Below, one piece after another: positions 9,001 through 33,000 of a stretch of DNA of 64,000 bases. Position numbers: made by a program. The stretch spans positions 704,001-768,000 of the forward strand of contig CAXXKM010000001.1 of the NCBI GenBank assembly GCA_963664435.2, read 5' to 3'. The first letter of the stretch is position 1; the number at the start of each line of letters is the position of its first letter. Source of the stretch: Longimicrobiales bacterium (GTDB lineage Bacteria > Gemmatimonadota > Gemmatimonadetes > Longimicrobiales > Gaopeijiaceae).

Positions 9001-12000
9001 CGCGCAATAACTTCGCGGACTCGGAGCCCGTGTCCGTGACCACCTTGGACGACAGGCCACCGCTGACGGCGGCGTTCCACGATGTGCCGGCCACGCACGG
9101 CGGCAGGCGCGCCGACTTTAGCTTCGAGCTTCGTTTCAGCGAGAACTTCCCGGGGAAGCTGCCCTACAAGAAGCTCAGAGACGAGGCGCTTAGTGCGACG
9201 AACGGCAAAGTGACGCGCGCGCGCCGGGCGGCGCAGAACCAGAACCAGCGCTGGATCATCACGGTGCGGCCGCTCTCGTCCGAGGACGTGACCGTGACGC
9301 TGGCGGCGACGACCGATTGCTCGGCGGCAGCCGCGATCTGCACGCCGGACGGTCGACCGCTGTCGAACTCCCCCTCGGCGACGATCCAGGGGCCGTCGGC
9401 GCCGGAGGCGACCGGCGTGAAGGTGTCATCGCACGCCGGCGCGGACAGCACCTATGTCTTGGGCGATACGATTCGCGTGACGCTGACTTTCAGCCAGCCG
9501 GTGGAGGTGACGGGCACGCCGCAGCTGAAGATCGACATGGACCCGGCGCACTGGGGCGAGAAGTTGGCCAGCTACGAGAGCGGCGGAGGGGACGACATGA
9601 CGTTCGCCCACGTGGTGGTGGAGCCTAATCTTTCAACCCAGGGGATCGCGGTGCTCGCGAACACACTTCGGCTCAACGGCGGCACGATCAGGTCCAAGGC
9701 GACAGGTGCGGACGCCGACCTGGCGCATGCCGGGCTGGCCCACGATCCGGCCCACAAGGTGGACTGGCGGCAGTCGGCGAGCTCGGGTGACGTGGCCAAC
9801 GGCGACGTGGTGGAAGACCCGTCGGTTCTCGCGGACGAGGCGCTGGCCGTAGCGGACGGGTTGAGCCCGGACGAGGCCGCCGCGGCGCTGTTCGGTGAGG
9901 GGACGCTCAGCGAGGCCAGGCAGGCCGCGCTCGACCTTCTGGGCAACCGGAACGGCGGCTACGATCTCGGGGACCTGCTCTCCTGGATCGAGCGCTGCCG
10001 AAGAGGTGAAGCCCGGTGCGGAGGAACACCTACCGATTCCAGTCCCACTTCGGGCGCCGCCCTCATCGGGGCTGCGGCAGCCGGACGGCGGGGGAACTCC
10101 AGGCGCCGCGGGCGCTCACGCGTCCGCGGCACGGGTCGCCGGGCGGGCAATGCCGGATGGGCGCTCACCGTGCTGCTCGCAGCCGCAATGACTTGGTCGT
10201 GCACCGGTGATGCGATGGCGCCAACCGCTCCGGCCGCCACCGTACCGGATCCGGGTCTCCTGACGGTCGAGTGGAGTGGGCCGGCAGCGAGAGCCGATAT
10301 CGGCGTCCTGCTGGAGTTGGAGGGTCCCACAATCGACGCCGTGCGAGCTCCCGGTCTCGAGCTGTACGAATCCGGAGCAGAGGAGCGCCATCAGATCGTC
10401 GTGGCGGGCGTCCTCCGGCCGGGTCCCCTCATGCAGTTCCACGTACCGGACCGCAACCAGTTCTCTCTGTACCGGGTCCGCGTCCTACAGGTCACGGGTG
10501 AGGGCTACGGGCTCCGGGACCCAACGGAGTACCGGGCCGTGGTCGTCACGAACTGACAACCCCCACCAAGATGGGTCCCCCGACGCGCCCGACGAGGTCC
10601 GAGTGCGTCGGGGGGGCCACGCCCGCAGCGGCCGGGGCGCGCGCAGGTGTCGCGCGTCCCGGCCGCTTAAGGGTTGCACCAAGCAGCGCCTTCTTGAGGG
10701 GCCGGATGATGCCGGGTTGTCCAGTAGAGCCCGCGTCACTGCCAACCCCGACTTCCCGTCCCGCCATCCCCGCACCAGCGCACGTCGGTCCGCTGGCGCC
10801 GTAGGGCCGTCTGCCAGCCGCGCATGCGATGAAGCGCGCGGCCCGTCCGCGAACGCCATCCCTCTCCGGGCCGGGAATCGACCAGCTCCACTAGCGTCGT
10901 CCTCTTCCCAGCCACCGCCCGGCCTCGCGAACGGCATCCCCTTCCCGCGAACGCTCGACTTCCGTCGTGCCGCCCGGCGCGTGTCCCGAACCGGTCGCAC
11001 CTGGGCCGGGCTCCGTCGGTCGAGCCTCGCACGCCACCCCCGCTCTCGCATCCCCTCCCGCCTTCCGGAGGTGTGCGCCGCCGCACTGGCGACGGGCTCC
11101 CGGACGTCGCGGACAACGTCGGATAACTACTTACACCACGGACACTTAGGAGATCTCCTAAGAGTTGACTTCCTGGAAAAGGTCCTTTCAACGTTACGGG
11201 CCTTGACACGGCTGGATCGGCTCTCATGCAGACCCTGGAGGAGCAATTCAACAGACGGCTGAACGCGTTCCTGGCCAGCACGGGCATGTGCCCGACGACG
11301 CTCGGCATGATGGCGGTGGGCGACCCGAGCCTGTTGCGCCAGATCGAGCGGGGACGCTCGCCGTCCCTCAGGACGGCGGACCGGATTCTGGCCTTCATGG
11401 CCGCCTACGAGGCGGACTCGGGCGGGGCGAGAGATCCGCCCGCCCGGCCTGCCGCGCCGAGGCCGGCGAGACGGTGGAGGAAGACGAACCGGAGCGGAGC
11501 GATGAGGAAAGACCGGAGGACTGCGAGAACGAGGCCGACGATCCGTTTCCTGCGGATCTCGGAAGTCGAGGCGCTGACCGGCCTGTCGCGGACCACGATC
11601 TACGACTGGTCGGCGGACGGGCGCTTTCCCCGGGCGGTCCGGCTGAGCGGGCGCGCGGTGCGCTGGATCGAGTCGGAGGTCCTGGAATGGATGGATGAGC
11701 GGATCGAGCACGACCGGGTCGGGGACGACGCCCCGGCGCCGACACCACAACTGACTCCCGAGGAGGAGAGCGAATGAGAACGTTGTCGAGAACGCTGAAG
11801 GTGGCCGCCTGGGCCGCGCTGCTGGCGCTGACGCCGGGTGTGCTCTGGGCGCAGGGGACGAGCCCATGGGTCGAGGCGGTGGACGAGCTACAGACGCAGT
11901 TCACGGGTCCGATCGCGCGCGGGCTGTCGCTGATCGCGATCGTGGTGGGCGGGCTGATGTTCGCGTTCGGCGAAGGCGGCAGCAAGCGCACGCTGGCCGG

Positions 12001-30000: not shown

Positions 30001-33000
30001 GCCTCTCGACGAGGCCGGCCAGGTGCTCTACCCAGACGCGCAGATCGAGTACGAGGACGCCGAGGGACGCACCGGACGCATCAACGTCGAGGTCGCGTCC
30101 GGCAACTACCGCGAACCGGCGCTGACCGCCAAGGCTGCCGCCGGGTTCGCGATGCACGCCAGCGGCCCGGCCGCCGCGGGCATGCTCCGAAAGCTCGGCT
30201 TGGGCCGGGGCGACGACGGCGCCCGGACCGGGGGACGCGCCGACCGCGATACGGCTTCCGTCGAACTCTGACCGTACGGGAGGAACCCGCCATGCAACCT
30301 TGGAAGATCAGCGCGGGACTGAGCGCCGCGCTCGTGGGATCCGTCCTGCTCCTCGGTGGATCCCGCCTCGAATACCTCGCGCCCCACTGGTCGCTCATCT
30401 TCGCCCGGCATGGCGTCGGCGTCGGCCTGCACGCGGCGTTCGCCGTCTTCACCCTCGCCGCCGCCATCTACGGCGTCGCCCGAGCCACCGGGCTCGCCGA
30501 TCTCGGCAGCCGCGTCGATCTCGCCGAGCGGTCCGTCCGGCGCGGTGAAGGGGATCATGACCTCGCCGATGCGCTCCGCAGGGACGCCGAAGGAGACTGG
30601 GAGTGACGCGCATGAAGGATCGACCGACCGTCGAGGGCCTGCCCGCCAACTGGCGCAGACAAGCCAAGTCGCTCCGCCGTTACGGCGGCGAGACCCCGGC
30701 CACCGCGATCGAACGCTGCGCCGACGACCTCGAAGCCACCCTCGTCGAGCGCGACGAGACCACGTTCTCGCTCGTCGAGGCTTCGCGGGAGAGCGGATAC
30801 TCCGCCGACCACCTCGGACGGCTCGTCCGCGACGGCAGGATCCCCAACGCCGGACGGCCCGGCGCGCCCAGGATCGCCCTCAAGGACCTGCCCCGGAAGG
30901 CGCATGTCCCCGCCGATCCGCGACTAGCGGAGAAGCCTCGCCGTAGCCAAGTTTCAAACGCGCAGATCGTGCAGTCCATCATCGAAAAAGGAATCGAATG
31001 ATGGCACGCACGAAACGTAGCCGGCGCGCGTACAGCGCCGGAGAATGGGGCCGGAACCGGGTGAGGGTGTTTCCCGATCCCAAGACCGGCCTGTACCAGA
31101 TCGAGTGGCGCGAGAACGGGCGCAGGCTCACAAGGTCGCTCAAACACCGCGACTGGGCTCGCGCGAAACGGCAGGCGGACGAGTTCGCCGCCGGGTTCGC
31201 CAAGCCGGAGCCGAACGGCAAGCAGGAAGCCAAGCCCGAGCCGCTCACGCTGGAGCGGCTTTTTGACATCTACACGGAAGAGGTGACGCCCACCAAGGGC
31301 GAGGGGACACGGCGGCGCGACCGGGTCGCGACCGCGATGTTCCTCCGTTTCTTCGGCAGGGACCGAAGGCCCGAAACCCTGTCCCAGCGCGATTGGGACC
31401 GGTTCATTCAAGCGCGGCGCGCGGGCAGGGCCGGTGCCTCGGGCAAGCCCGTGGGCAATCGGACGATCGAATGGGATCTGACGTTCCTGCTCGCGGTCCT
31501 CAACTGGGCCGAGAGGTCGAAGGACGAGGAGGGAAGGCGGCTCCTCGATAGGAACCCGCTCAAGGGCTTGAGGAAGCCCAAGGAAAAGAACCCTACGCGG
31601 GTTGTGCTTTCCGAGGAGGAATACCAAGCGCTACTCCGAGTTTCTCGGAAAGTCGGCTGGCGATTCCACGTCGCGCTCGTGCTCGCGCATGAAACCGGGC
31701 ACAGGATCGGAGCCATCCGCAAGCTCCGGTGGTCGGACATAGACCTCGACGGCGGAGTTATCCGGTGGCGCGCGGAGCATGAAAAGACCGAATACGAGCA
31801 CCGGACGCCGGCGACGGCCGAGGCGATTGCCGCCTTGGAAGAAGCGCAAAGGTATGGCAATGGCACTGGAGACCCGCCAGTGCTTCCCGCGCCGAGGGAT
31901 CCGTCGAGGTGCTTGTGCCATATGTCGGCCCACCGCATGTGGGGCAGGGCGGAGACGCTCGCAGGGCTGGAGCCGAAACACCGCCGAGGCTGGCACTCGC
32001 TGAGGCGCAAGTTCGCCTCCGACCTCATGGACCAGCCGCTGAAGGTGCTCTGTGAACTCGGCGGATGGAAGGAGGCCCGGACGGTCCTCACCTGCTATCA
32101 GCGGGCCGACGAGGGACAGCTTAGGAAAGCCCTGGCAGACCGCCGCAGGGTTCGCCCCTGAAATCCCAATCAGCGGGAGTCAATCGGCGGGAATACGGTC
32201 GGCAATCGCTGCTAAGTACAACCGCTACAATCGGATGCCTTCCCGCCGGTATTTGCTTACCGTACTTGTACATACGATACCAACCCGTTCGAGTACCGGA
32301 CACTCGTGGCCTGACGCACACGAAGACATCTACTACACCGCGATCCATACCGAAAGCTGACATCACCCGTCACCTTCTTGGACAGGATAGAGGCGACGTG
32401 CCCTTTCCAATTGGCCACGTGCAGCCCTGTGGCCAACCTCTTCTAGGAACATCTCCCAAGGCCCCTCCTCGCTTCCGATTTCATCCCGGTCAGGTGTTGA
32501 GATACCGATCTCGTTGAGATGGTAGGCGAGGGCCCGGATTTCCTGGCGGTGGTGTGGGTTGCTGGCAAGCCGGGAGAGCCGGTAGAGGTCTTGGGTCATC
32601 GCAGAAAAGGTTGCGACTTCCTTAGCCTTCTTCTGCCTAGCCGGTAGCCGTTCTCGCAACCCCCAAATGGTACCTGCCAACCAAACCGATCCTCCTGCCG
32701 CTCCACCAAGGGCAATGACCGGCAACAGCGCCTCTATGACAGGCCACATAGCCTTCAGCACGGACATGGCTCCGGCGAAATCCACCAGCAAGCCGAAGAA
32801 CGTAGCGACAACTGCGACCGGCAACCACAACTGGCGCCAGGCTTCACGTTTCGGTTCCATTCGGTACATGGTATCGTCCCGTCCGGCCACGTGACACCCC
32901 CGGTCAGGTCGGCCGGCGCCGCGTGCTGACGGTTACGACCTCGGCGACGTCCGATTCTGGAACGATCGGTGCCGGCGCGGTAGGGAGCGCTACGGAACCA

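Follow-up and report, generated by a model that had tools for sequence, protein, structure and literature searches.

Relaxases of the MOBC class (TraX of pAD1/pAM373, MobC of CloDF13; PF13814, Replic_Relax) are described as combining a winged helix with a restriction-nuclease-like domain, and their oriT, with an inverted repeat and separate direct repeats, as lying 5′ of the coupling-protein gene (PMC12857230, PMC2262945). As far as the cited accounts go, the locus described here is similar in its probable two-domain plan, in being non-HUH and in its VirD4 partner (PMC12857230, PMC6736028), and the place of its proposed oriT, 5′ of the coupling-protein gene, is that of CloDF13/HPI-type elements (PMC2262945, PMC5357655). 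Conserved His, Asp and Glu residues are also in register with those of MOBC. In contrast to the single MOBC protein, there are two paralog-like proteins here, orfA and orfB, and the repeat-binding role apparently resides in the inactive one, whereas TraX is reported to bind its own direct repeats (PMC12857230). Further differences are that orfB lacks the third DEE acid at E+2 and itself falls below the Pfam cut-off, and that the boxes are 5 bp long and present in four copies, one of them in the core loop.

The SmpO/SmpP system of the pWBG749 family (Staphylococcus) is known for oriT mimics and for an accessory protein that sets specificity (PMC4993578; PMC8136818). Within what these sources cover, the likeness extends to a common relaxase core with variant accessory sites, one specificity-fixing accessory protein, few switching residues, repeated switches in the tree, and hitchhikers with several oriT subtypes (PMC4993578, PMC8136818). 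SmpO is a small ribbon-helix-helix protein, whereas orfA is a 310-aa protein with a winged helix and a nuclease-fold (alpha/beta) domain; orfA is an analogue of SmpO and not a member of its family. The system is hosted here by chromosomal ICEs and by integrase islands, in diderm symbionts of sponges, and some of the hitchhikers bring along a specificity gene and a coupling protein of their own. The iOriT IMEs, which have an oriT and no relaxase and are described as helper-mobilized, resemble the islands found here in that these carry only integrase and oriT and would be mobilized by a helper (PMC11389934). What sets the present case apart is that one 4.5-Mb genome holds about 29 such sites, which fall into at least six box types, and that MOB_P islands using the same integrase family form a parallel class alongside them.

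The element and the search for known relaxases

The window, which is the whole 64,000-nt stretch of DNA that was analyzed, contains the element listed in Table 1. The preliminary description had placed it at 11226..32161; the element is real, but this extent is too short, as homology to the sister elements runs from about 6466 to 32272. No att repeat was found for the window element. A gene-content check confirmed that four ICEs carry VirB2/3/4/5/6/8/9/10/11, VirD4 and ArdC together with an integrase at the places first given. The virB9 gene is uninterrupted in the three sister elements and is split in the window by an insertion consisting of an integrase (15470-16693) and an Mrr gene (17192-18043, minus strand). 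The virB5-like gene of the window was called from only an E-value of 0.076 and its position. The 104-aa and 129-aa ORFs that precede the integrase have no family match; the 104-aa ORF is kept in related loci, and comparison of these loci placed ArdC, the integrase and orfB in the core of the element.

Table 1. Features of the element. Coordinates without a contig prefix are positions in the window.
Feature	Position	Strand	Basis or remark
Element common to sister elements	6466..32272	+	blastn 93-98%: both sisters on the left, one on the right
Sister elements compared	C3:547658-583646 and C3:1152391-1173752		blastn
Tyrosine recombinase (XerC/D-like, below family cut-offs)	6895..7815	-	in three of four elements
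858-aa protein, SWM repeat and fibronectin III domain (cargo)	7980..10556	+	
AlpA-domain regulator	11226..11777	+	PF05930, E 1e-20
virB2, virB3, virB4	11774..14810	+	PF04956, PF05101, PF19044
virB9 in two pieces (14815-~15318, ~18520-18859)	14815..18859	+	family profile and sister comparison
virB10, virB5-like, virB6, virB8	18856..23850	+	
IS630-type transposase	21032-22087	-	inside the 18856..23850 gene block
orfA (g00580), proposed oriT-specificity factor	23847..24779	+	winged helix and nuclease-fold domain
orfA residues 47-50 (HPEQ)	23985..23996	+	start of recognition helix; predicts box type
Non-coding site, proposed oriT	24780..25077	.	fold z -5.0; alignment and pair counts; 33 genome copies
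Box 1, TTCAC	24809..24813	-	
Box 2, TTCAC	24832..24836	+	
Box 3, TTCAC	24855..24859	+	
Core inverted repeat, candidate nick region	24949..25044	.	14-bp perfect arms 24949-24962, 25031-25044
Box 4, TTCAC	25003..25007	+	in loop of core inverted repeat
virD4 coupling protein (TraG-D_C domain) and virB11	25078..28124	+	PF10412, PF12696, PF00437
ArdC	28324..29361	+	PF08401, PF18818
orfB (g00585), divergent PF13814/MOBC-like relaxase, proposed nickase	29384..30271	+	MarR-like winged helix and alpha/beta domain
104-aa ORF and 129-aa ORF	30292..31001	+	excisionase-like by position only
Tyrosine integrase	30998..32161	+	32 genome copies >60% identity

The four ICEs had been described as lacking any recognizable relaxase. 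Among the 24 window proteins scanned there were no HUH (MOBF, MOBP, MOBQ, MOBV), MOBH or MOBT domains, and PF08751, PF03389, PF07514, PF02486 and PF01076 gave 0 matches genome-wide. The claim was nevertheless not upheld, as the orfB family links to PF13814. It also fails for the element at C3:553570-583535, where a MOB_P relaxase (PF03432) is encoded at C3:567655 by an island nested within the element and interrupting virB5; this is one of 13 MOB_P matches in the genome, with 0 in the window. As a single joint explanation, we consider it probable that these are MPF_T-type ICEs of Gemmatimonadota and Acidobacteriota with a MOBC-like relaxosome split over two winged-helix/nuclease-fold proteins, in which orfB cuts, orfA picks the origin, and islands are mobilized in trans.

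orfB as the candidate relaxase

In the best reading of its sequence, orfB is a divergent Replic_Relax/MOBC-like relaxase and the candidate nickase. PF13814 accounted for 29 of its 30 named Atlas matches (score 0.90, 191 shared features). The window protein itself had no Pfam or NCBIfam match, while 2 of 68 relatives passed the curated PF13814 cut-off of 25.3 bits (30.7 and 26.1 bits, covering profile positions 1-171 and 1-168 of 191) and 8 of 68 reached E<=1. Profile-profile comparison with 27 PF13814/MOBC proteins gave P 87.9 and E 3.2e-6. A profile of these 27 proteins does not pick up orfB in a genome search, and there was no significant match between orfB and the single pAM373 protein. The bulk of the profile signal comes from the winged helix (hhalign against PF13814 N-termini, E 1.7e-9); the C-terminal part alone aligns in register with an E-value of 0.12.

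The key residues of orfB are H142, P217-D218, E222, E236, Y242 and K250. In the alignment, H142, P217, E236 and Y242 are present in 68/68 sequences, and D218 and K250 in 67/68; H142 lies in the helix that precedes the predicted nuclease strands. H142, D218 and E236 align on the invariant H, D and E of the 27 PF13814/MOBC proteins (H142 on H108), and the D218-E236 spacing of 18 equals that of D152-E170 in the pAM373 MOBC relaxase. Because the third acid of the DEE metal-binding motif (D152, E170, E172 numbering) is missing at E+2, where A, V, T or G is found, orfB was filed as MOBC-like and not as a canonical member. Y242 lies 6 residues after E236, compared to 11 between E170 and Y181, the essential tyrosine of TraX, and D143 and E222 are further near-invariant acids. 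The structure model (pLDDT 86.6) has a MarR-like wHTH that matched MarR-type proteins at Z 11.6 (rmsd 4.8, 90 aligned) and Z 11.0 (rmsd 1.9, 76 aligned), and a C-terminal part of the order helix-strand...strand-strand-helix-strand with PD218 and E236 on a hairpin. In the fold searches of orfB the matches were taken up by winged-helix proteins, so they speak to the wHTH and not to the predicted C-terminal nuclease fold. As in MOBC systems, the element has a VirD4 and an oriT-like site with an inverted repeat and direct repeats.

Of the ICE-type loci with at least 6 kb of downstream DNA, 29 of 33 had the orfB gene; among the satellite-type loci, 0 of 20 did. The order in Acidobacteriota is orfB and orfA adjacent, followed by the site and virD4. 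This adjacency would also suit an obligate heterodimeric nuclease with a composite site, in which orfB supplies PD...E and orfA the third acid; orfB is without the E+2 acid, and position 180 of orfA, aligned in register, is D or E in the sponge clade. However, several Acidobacteriota orfA rows have no acid at 180, and D143 and E222 could complete the orfB site on their own, which makes the heterodimer improbable. In the preferred reading, orfB would be the catalytic relaxase and would nick the conserved inverted-repeat core or the DNA next to it.

orfA, its recognition helix and the non-coding site

The initial observations on g00580 were largely reproduced: the protein has 310 aa and no useful Pfam match, lies directly 5′ of a 298-bp gap followed by virD4, and has no invariant catalytic acids among 38 relatives. 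Its family is real, but in place of the 1836 relatives reported there were 1444 among the 8000 candidates scored. The SdaI match was recovered for residues 88-240 (pLDDT 88.0, Z 6.2, rmsd 4.7, 126 residues); these residues gave no match at Z>=8, and their top 12 fold matches all belong to what we take to be the restriction-nuclease-like fold class. The orfA winged helix matched PF13814 N-termini by profile at E 5.5e-4. Compared with orfB, orfA has the same two-domain plan minus the family-wide catalytic acids, with E-values of 3e-5 for the wHTH and 0.31 for the C-terminal sequence; the paralog-like relationship rests on the wHTH and the common fold class and not on the C-terminal sequence. The PD aspartate is replaced by V, L or A in 82/82 sponge-clade copies.

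The proposal that g00580 is the missing relaxase would have orfA bind the boxes and nick through an unusual active site, with orfB active at a different stage (replicating the excised element, termination or second-strand work). In its favor, orfA always adjoins the site, and 82/82 sponge-clade copies have R108 and Y178, with D or E always at positions 114 and 180. This set is not family-wide, however, with Y178 in 25/31 and the acid at 180 lost in several Acidobacteriota rows. TraX, as described, binds its own direct repeats (PMC12857230), and satellites of the order AlpA-orfA-site-virD4-integrase without orfB recall CloDF13-like modules of relaxase and coupling protein, to the extent that the sources describe these (PMC2262945, PMC11389934). 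On the other hand, 0 of 38 orfA relatives match PF13814, and the invariant H/PD/E set belongs to orfB, which accompanies every intact ICE. Relaxase activity of orfA is thus unlikely, and at least not the best supported reading, since the protein related to PF13814/MOBC, and the one whose candidate catalytic residues are invariant, is g00585. The best reading is that orfA acts as an origin-specificity factor, as suggested by the covariation of its recognition helix with the boxes.

Helix and box classes, initially assigned by eye, matched in 74 of 82 loci, with 8 of these 82 training loci as misfits. A helix-box rule fixed in advance was correct for 28/28 covered held-out copies, and 12 of the 40 held-out copies fell outside the rule. 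The best 5-residue orfA window against the boxes was 46-50 (partial r 0.61, 81 loci); in the 31 loci with orfB its partial r was 0.83, compared to 0.40 for the best orfB window, and orfB gave no comparable signal. Recognition-helix identity across the same 31 loci was 90% for orfB and 59% for orfA. In a tree built without the helix, residues 47-50 and the box share 12 changes, compared to 2-8 for 29 matched control windows. As with SmpO, few residues of an accessory protein track the oriT boxes around a common core, here by covariation only. With its nuclease active site apparently lost, orfA would bind the four 5-bp boxes through this helix and license the origin for orfB, and probably also for the cognate VirD4.

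The 33 site matches, 25 of them near full length, agree with the earlier count, and the site boxes do differ by element, as claimed for the iterons. The nested, co-varying inverted repeats were likewise confirmed, with two-sided changes in 25/38 pairs when the structure was named from the window copy and in 7/19 pairs of the RNAalifold consensus; the covariation score was reached by 0/500 shuffles. The core arms hold the conserved GAGCGACC / GGTCGCTC, and the repeat GAGCGACC...GGTCGCTC lies in the intergenic gap after orfA in 11/12 Acidobacteriota loci. Both arms are changed in 9 of the 33 genome copies. It is very improbable that the site is a structured non-coding RNA or a MITE-like repeat, with the T4SS secreting protein or using MOB_P relaxases from elsewhere in the genome. 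Its strong folding, its many copies and the 13 MOB_P relaxases would fit; but the site has no Rfam match, and its direct and inverted boxes switch with the protein helix, as expected for double-stranded binding sites. MOB_P genes and sites are also mostly apart (a MOB_P relaxase lies within 5 kb of just 2/29 non-ICE sites), and the core of the element includes ArdC, integrase and orfB.

Satellite islands and distribution

Outside the ICEs are 29 of the 33 site copies, most without orfA or virD4, and next to integrases they often form opposed pairs whose members differ in box type. As the preliminary description had it, they belong to integrase-bearing satellites: 27/29 non-ICE sites have an integrase of the same family no more than 5 kb away, compared to 6.8% of random places. 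Box types are mixed in 7 of 8 multi-site clusters. This distribution bears on whether the site is instead an operator/promoter or a replication origin, with orfA regulating the virD4 operon or starting circle replication and transfer starting elsewhere. Replication origins, too, typically combine iterons with a winged-helix binder, the site extends as far as the start of virD4, and PF13814 is named for replication-relaxation. Such a role is hard to reconcile with so many copies apart from the ICEs, orfA and virD4, and with a core repeat that two phyla share irrespective of the boxes; no second conserved oriT candidate was seen, and we think this role has little chance of being correct. The sequence comparisons support the reading that g00580 is a relaxosome gene and the site an oriT-like cis element of which satellite islands make use. 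Given a common core and swappable boxes, islands with oriT copies of several specificities would be mobilized by a relaxase in trans.

With these findings, T4SS elements of Gemmatimonadota and Acidobacteriota that profile-based tools leave relaxase-less have candidates for the relaxase, the specificity factor and the oriT. The findings make testable the place of a MOBC-like nick, in a core that both phyla retain, and the switching of origin specificity via four residues, with at least six box types and natural swap pairs. If true, conjugative elements and oriT mimics would here be engaged in a second, independent conflict of the SmpO type, with one genome alone having about 29 hitchhiker sites. 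A more far-reaching reading, to which we give an even chance, is that a MOBC-like nuclease was duplicated and the dead copy became a reprogrammable origin reader, possibly docking the origin to its own VirD4, and supporting an economy of relaxase-less islands that gather origins with several specificities, in two phyla that have been little studied and that would be typed as MOB-less by standard methods. Part of this reading is a near one-to-one code from orfA residues to bases, for example P or H at position 48 with T or G, and Q or K versus R at position 50 with A versus G.

Some islands contain orfA, site and virD4, some orfA and site, and most only one to four sites. Six satellite-type loci have orfA, site and virD4 without orfB and resemble a self-contained relaxase/coupling-protein module; two more AlpA-orfA-site-virD4-integrase satellites without orfB are found in this genome. 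Among 151 genomes of this class, orfA is present in 29 and orfB in 24.

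Gene content of the element and its sisters

The element in the window is of the MPF_T type, and its genes are ordered AlpA, virB2, virB3, virB4, virB9 (split), virB10, virB5-like, an IS630-type transposase, virB6, virB8, orfA, a 298-bp gap, virD4, virB11, ArdC, orfB, two small ORFs, and an integrase. The preliminary description had counted four related elements, and tblastn recovered the same gene set at the three other places. In these searches, orfB was confined to the four elements, and orfA was also found in two orfA-virD4-integrase islands and in fragments. The HUH, MOBH and MOBT families were all absent from the window element in a family search, and the genome encodes 13 MOB_P relaxases, one of which is carried by an island inside the C3:553-583 kb element. 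By their labels, the related loci belong to Gemmatimonadota of sponges (Palauibacter, Longimicrobiales), apart from a few that come from other bins, and contigs of four sequencing runs placed related sequence in sponge-derived data.

Because an insertion splits virB9, the T4SS of the window copy may be inactive. The virB9 gene is intact in all three sister elements, and the virB genes of C3:1152391-1168991 are unbroken. A search for att ends of the window element found none. The integrase end of the C3:1152391 sister adjoins a tRNA gene, by eye one for Val, and the first 43 bases of that gene are repeated about 50 kb upstream, which suggests that this sister integrated at the 5′ end of the tRNA gene; the window copy has no tRNA-type repeat of this kind.

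Positions of the features (window coordinates unless a contig or locus is named)
Feature	Position	Strand	Description
orfA (g00580)	23847-24779	+	310 aa
Site	24780-25077		Non-coding gap, proposed oriT
orfB (g00585)	29384-30271	+	
Homologous stretch	~6466-32272		Shared with two sister elements
Cargo	6895-10556		Tyrosine recombinase and 858-aa SWM-repeat/fibronectin III protein, common to three of four elements
Insertion	15318-18520		3.2 kb; P4-type integrase and Mrr restriction gene; interrupts virB9
Region right of integrase	33149-50067		Low GC; several defence-like ORFs, IS pieces, metallo-hydrolase-like genes
Gene pair in that region	35889-37238		HTH and peptidase-like
Sister element	C1:1572815-1589426		
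Sister element	C3:553570-583535		
Sister element	C3:1152391-1168991		
Nested island	C3:560163-571547		11 kb, interrupts virB5 of sister; AlpA, MOB_P relaxase, integrase, restriction-like genes (McrBC-like by eye)
Transposase-like gene	C2:901710-902711		333 aa, IS110-like by eye
Transposase-like gene	C3:1259871-1260872		Same gene
Small Acidobacteriota ORF	L139:16293-16541		80-100 aa, between site and virD4
Small Acidobacteriota ORF	L146:16429-16722		As in L139

Covariation of an orfA helix with the boxes of the site

The site contains a 5-bp box four times, three direct and one inverted, and all four switch in concert from one element to another. Residues 47-50 of orfA match the box type in 74 of the 82 training loci: HPEQ with TTCAC (33 loci), DR[FW]K with TGTGC (12), HHER with TGCGC (10), H[RHN]R[ST]/RGRT with GGACA (10), HRHT with GTACA (6), and HHE[QK] with TGCAC (3). 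The misfits were HPEQ with TGCGC (2), with TGTGC (1) or with no site (1), DRWQ with GGACA (1), and HPEK with mixed boxes (3).

The helix and box classes were drawn by eye, and therefore three checks were run. A class-free scan of every 5-residue window, corrected for overall identity, peaked at orfA residues 46-50, with r of 0.61 in 81 loci and 0.83 in the subset of 31 where orfB is present as well; the best windows elsewhere reached 0.40 in orfB and 0.44 in VirD4. When the tree was computed with the helix omitted, 12 changes were common to residues 47-50 and the box, compared with 2-8 changes shared with the box for 29 control windows with an equal number of changes (three of the 82 loci, without a box call, were excluded), and identical helix-box pairings arose again on separate branches. 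In a held-out set of 40 further copies from 40 loci (L187 without an intact orfA), all 28 copies covered by the rule, which had been fixed beforehand, fit it, 27 of them being <97% identical to any training row. New helices were present in 12 of the 40; most of these had the box of the class closest to them, and two had a box not seen before. Because kin are not independent, none of these figures is a probability. The locus without a site, L021, entered neither the site HMM nor the correlation scan, and alignment A6 omitted both L021 and L026. Across the 31 loci with both genes, helix identity was 90% in orfB and 59% in orfA.

In L206 and L213, an orfA helix of HRGT accompanies a box absent from the training set (GGTGC/GGCGC-like); this pairing is a seventh specificity.

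Judged from these sequence patterns, orfA is probably the origin reader, a predicted binder of the boxes. Residues 88-240 were modelled confidently (pLDDT 88.0), and the middling match to SdaI claimed for orfA was reproduced at Z 6.2, the top 12 rows being nucleases of that class, none with Z of 8 or more. The main rival explanation is that orfA nicks by itself, and it keeps some weight because the islands with orfA, site and virD4 resemble mob modules that lack nothing. PF13814 (Replic_Relax) was found in 0 of 38 orfA relatives, only G33, Q39, R98 and P166 are invariant among relatives, and V163 and Y178 stand at the D and E of PF13814 in an alignment that is in register and not significant. 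The predicted orfA-orfB complex scored 0.00 in two runs, which is uninformative either way. The relaxosome parts named in the preliminary description are real; their roles are reassigned, with orfA as the putative reader and orfB as the relaxase candidate.

orfB as a relaxase candidate

The orfB of the window matched nothing in Pfam or NCBIfam; among its Atlas features, PF13814 occurred in 29 of 30 named hits. An alignment was made of 68 relatives, comprising 60 near-full-coverage sequences from the best 150 of 764 plus close relatives. PF13814 was detected at E<=1 in eight of the 68, and two passed the curated cut-off over most of the profile. When the family was compared by hhalign with an alignment of 27 PF13814/MOBC proteins, one of them the pAM373 relaxase (MOBC by PLSDB typing), the match had P 87.9 and E 3.2e-6, a signal that comes mostly from the winged helix; taken by themselves, the C-terminal parts are in register but reach no better than E 0.12. 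This alignment places H142, D218 and E236 of orfB on the invariant H, D and E of the set. H142, P217, E236 and Y242 are conserved in 68/68 relatives, D218 and K250 in 67/68, and E222 in 66/68. A check of the pAM373 protein found E28, D152, E170, E172, K176, R180, Y181 and Y189 at their TraX positions, and the D218-E236 spacing in orfB equals that of D152-E170. In the orfB model (pLDDT 86.6), the winged helix is MarR-like and is accompanied by an alpha/beta domain.

A search of PDB sequences with the orfB profile gave nothing beyond weak MarR/PadR matches, and the model had no Foldseek match at E<=0.001. Neither PF13814 nor a profile of the PF13814/MOBC proteins matched anything in this genome, neither the orfA nor the orfB family was significant by hhalign against the single pAM373 protein, and tblastn of orfA and orfB against PLSDB plasmids found no match. 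The protein is filed as a MOBC-like relaxase candidate, and not as a canonical member, because the signal is dominated by the winged helix, the DEE motif lacks its third acid, and the spacing of the invariant Tyr differs. PF13814 is equated with MOBC in PMC5357655, and the MOBC plan, as outlined in PMC12857230 and PMC6736028, is a PD-(D/E)XK-related protein with a wHTH, with five direct repeats that lie 70-120 bp away from the nick.

The site and the proposed hitchhiker islands

The site folds much more strongly than shuffled sequences (z -5.0), and Rfam gave no match over window positions 6000-33000. Two-sided changes were observed in 25 of 38 named pairs; those in the box hairpin reflect concerted change of putative binding boxes and are not proof of a hairpin. 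In the core, with arms GAGCGACC / GGTCGCTC, six pairs are invariant in 31 copies. The core was altered in 9 of the 33 genome copies, each time with a change in either arm; duplicates of one island account for two of the nine pairs of copies. Twelve Acidobacteriota gaps were examined, and an inverted-repeat search located the core downstream of orfA in 11 of them (1-2 bases changed in two); of the Acidobacteriota sites, the sponge-clade site HMM had found L133 alone. The order in Acidobacteriota is orfB-orfA-site-small ORF-virD4, and orfA and orfB are therefore regarded as one module, though ArdC and virD4 intervene in the window. The small ORF is ribbon-helix-helix-like by eye, has no Pfam match, and is absent from sponge-clade elements. 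A nick motif of CloDF13 was located in that plasmid, in one of the two arms of an inverted repeat; it has only five bases in common with the core of the site and was dropped as support. An oriT ahead of the coupling-protein gene, with nick sites within an inverted repeat, is described in PMC2262945.

The 33 site matches counted previously, 25 of them near full length, were obtained again and fall in 19 clusters. The same integrase family was found within 5 kb of 27 of the 29 non-ICE sites (6.8% expected), and a MOB_P gene near two only. Box types are mixed in seven of eight true multi-site clusters. By the rule, the intact resident orfA copies would read TTCAC in three of the ICEs, GGACA in the other and TGTGC in two islands, and these are the three commonest box types, with 23 of 33 matches; the genome contains no intact orfA that would match the TGCGC, TGCAC and GTACA sites. 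Residues 47-50 are HPEQ in the window orfA, RGRT in the copy at C1:1580180-1581097 and SRFK in the copy at C3:1258417. Among 80 related loci, 33 are of ICE type with enough DNA, and 29 of them have orfB; it is absent from all 20 loci that lack virB8 upstream, six of which keep virD4.

In the mechanism that we propose, orfA would bind the boxes and connect the origin to orfB, perhaps to VirD4 as well, orfB would nick at the core, and the islands would be mobilised with orfB supplied in trans. In the staphylococcal pWBG749 system, SmpO sets specificity and plasmids bear several oriT mimics (PMC4993578, PMC8136818); the likeness lies in a specificity-setting protein and hitchhikers with several origin types. 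Acidobacteria conjugation is called little known in PMC3548315, where some MOB-less T4SS are said to possibly conceal relaxases of unknown type. In literature mostly outside subscription journals, we found neither a description of these elements nor one of a two-protein relaxosome of MOBC-like type.

The genome holds 32 copies of one tyrosine-integrase family with >60% identity, about eight of them with a MOB_P relaxase at a distance of 0.7-1.3 kb and others beside the site; one integrase family serves two classes of mobilisable island, MOB_P-linked and site-linked. In both orfA-virD4 islands, the transposase-like gene has inserted within the site or immediately past its end.
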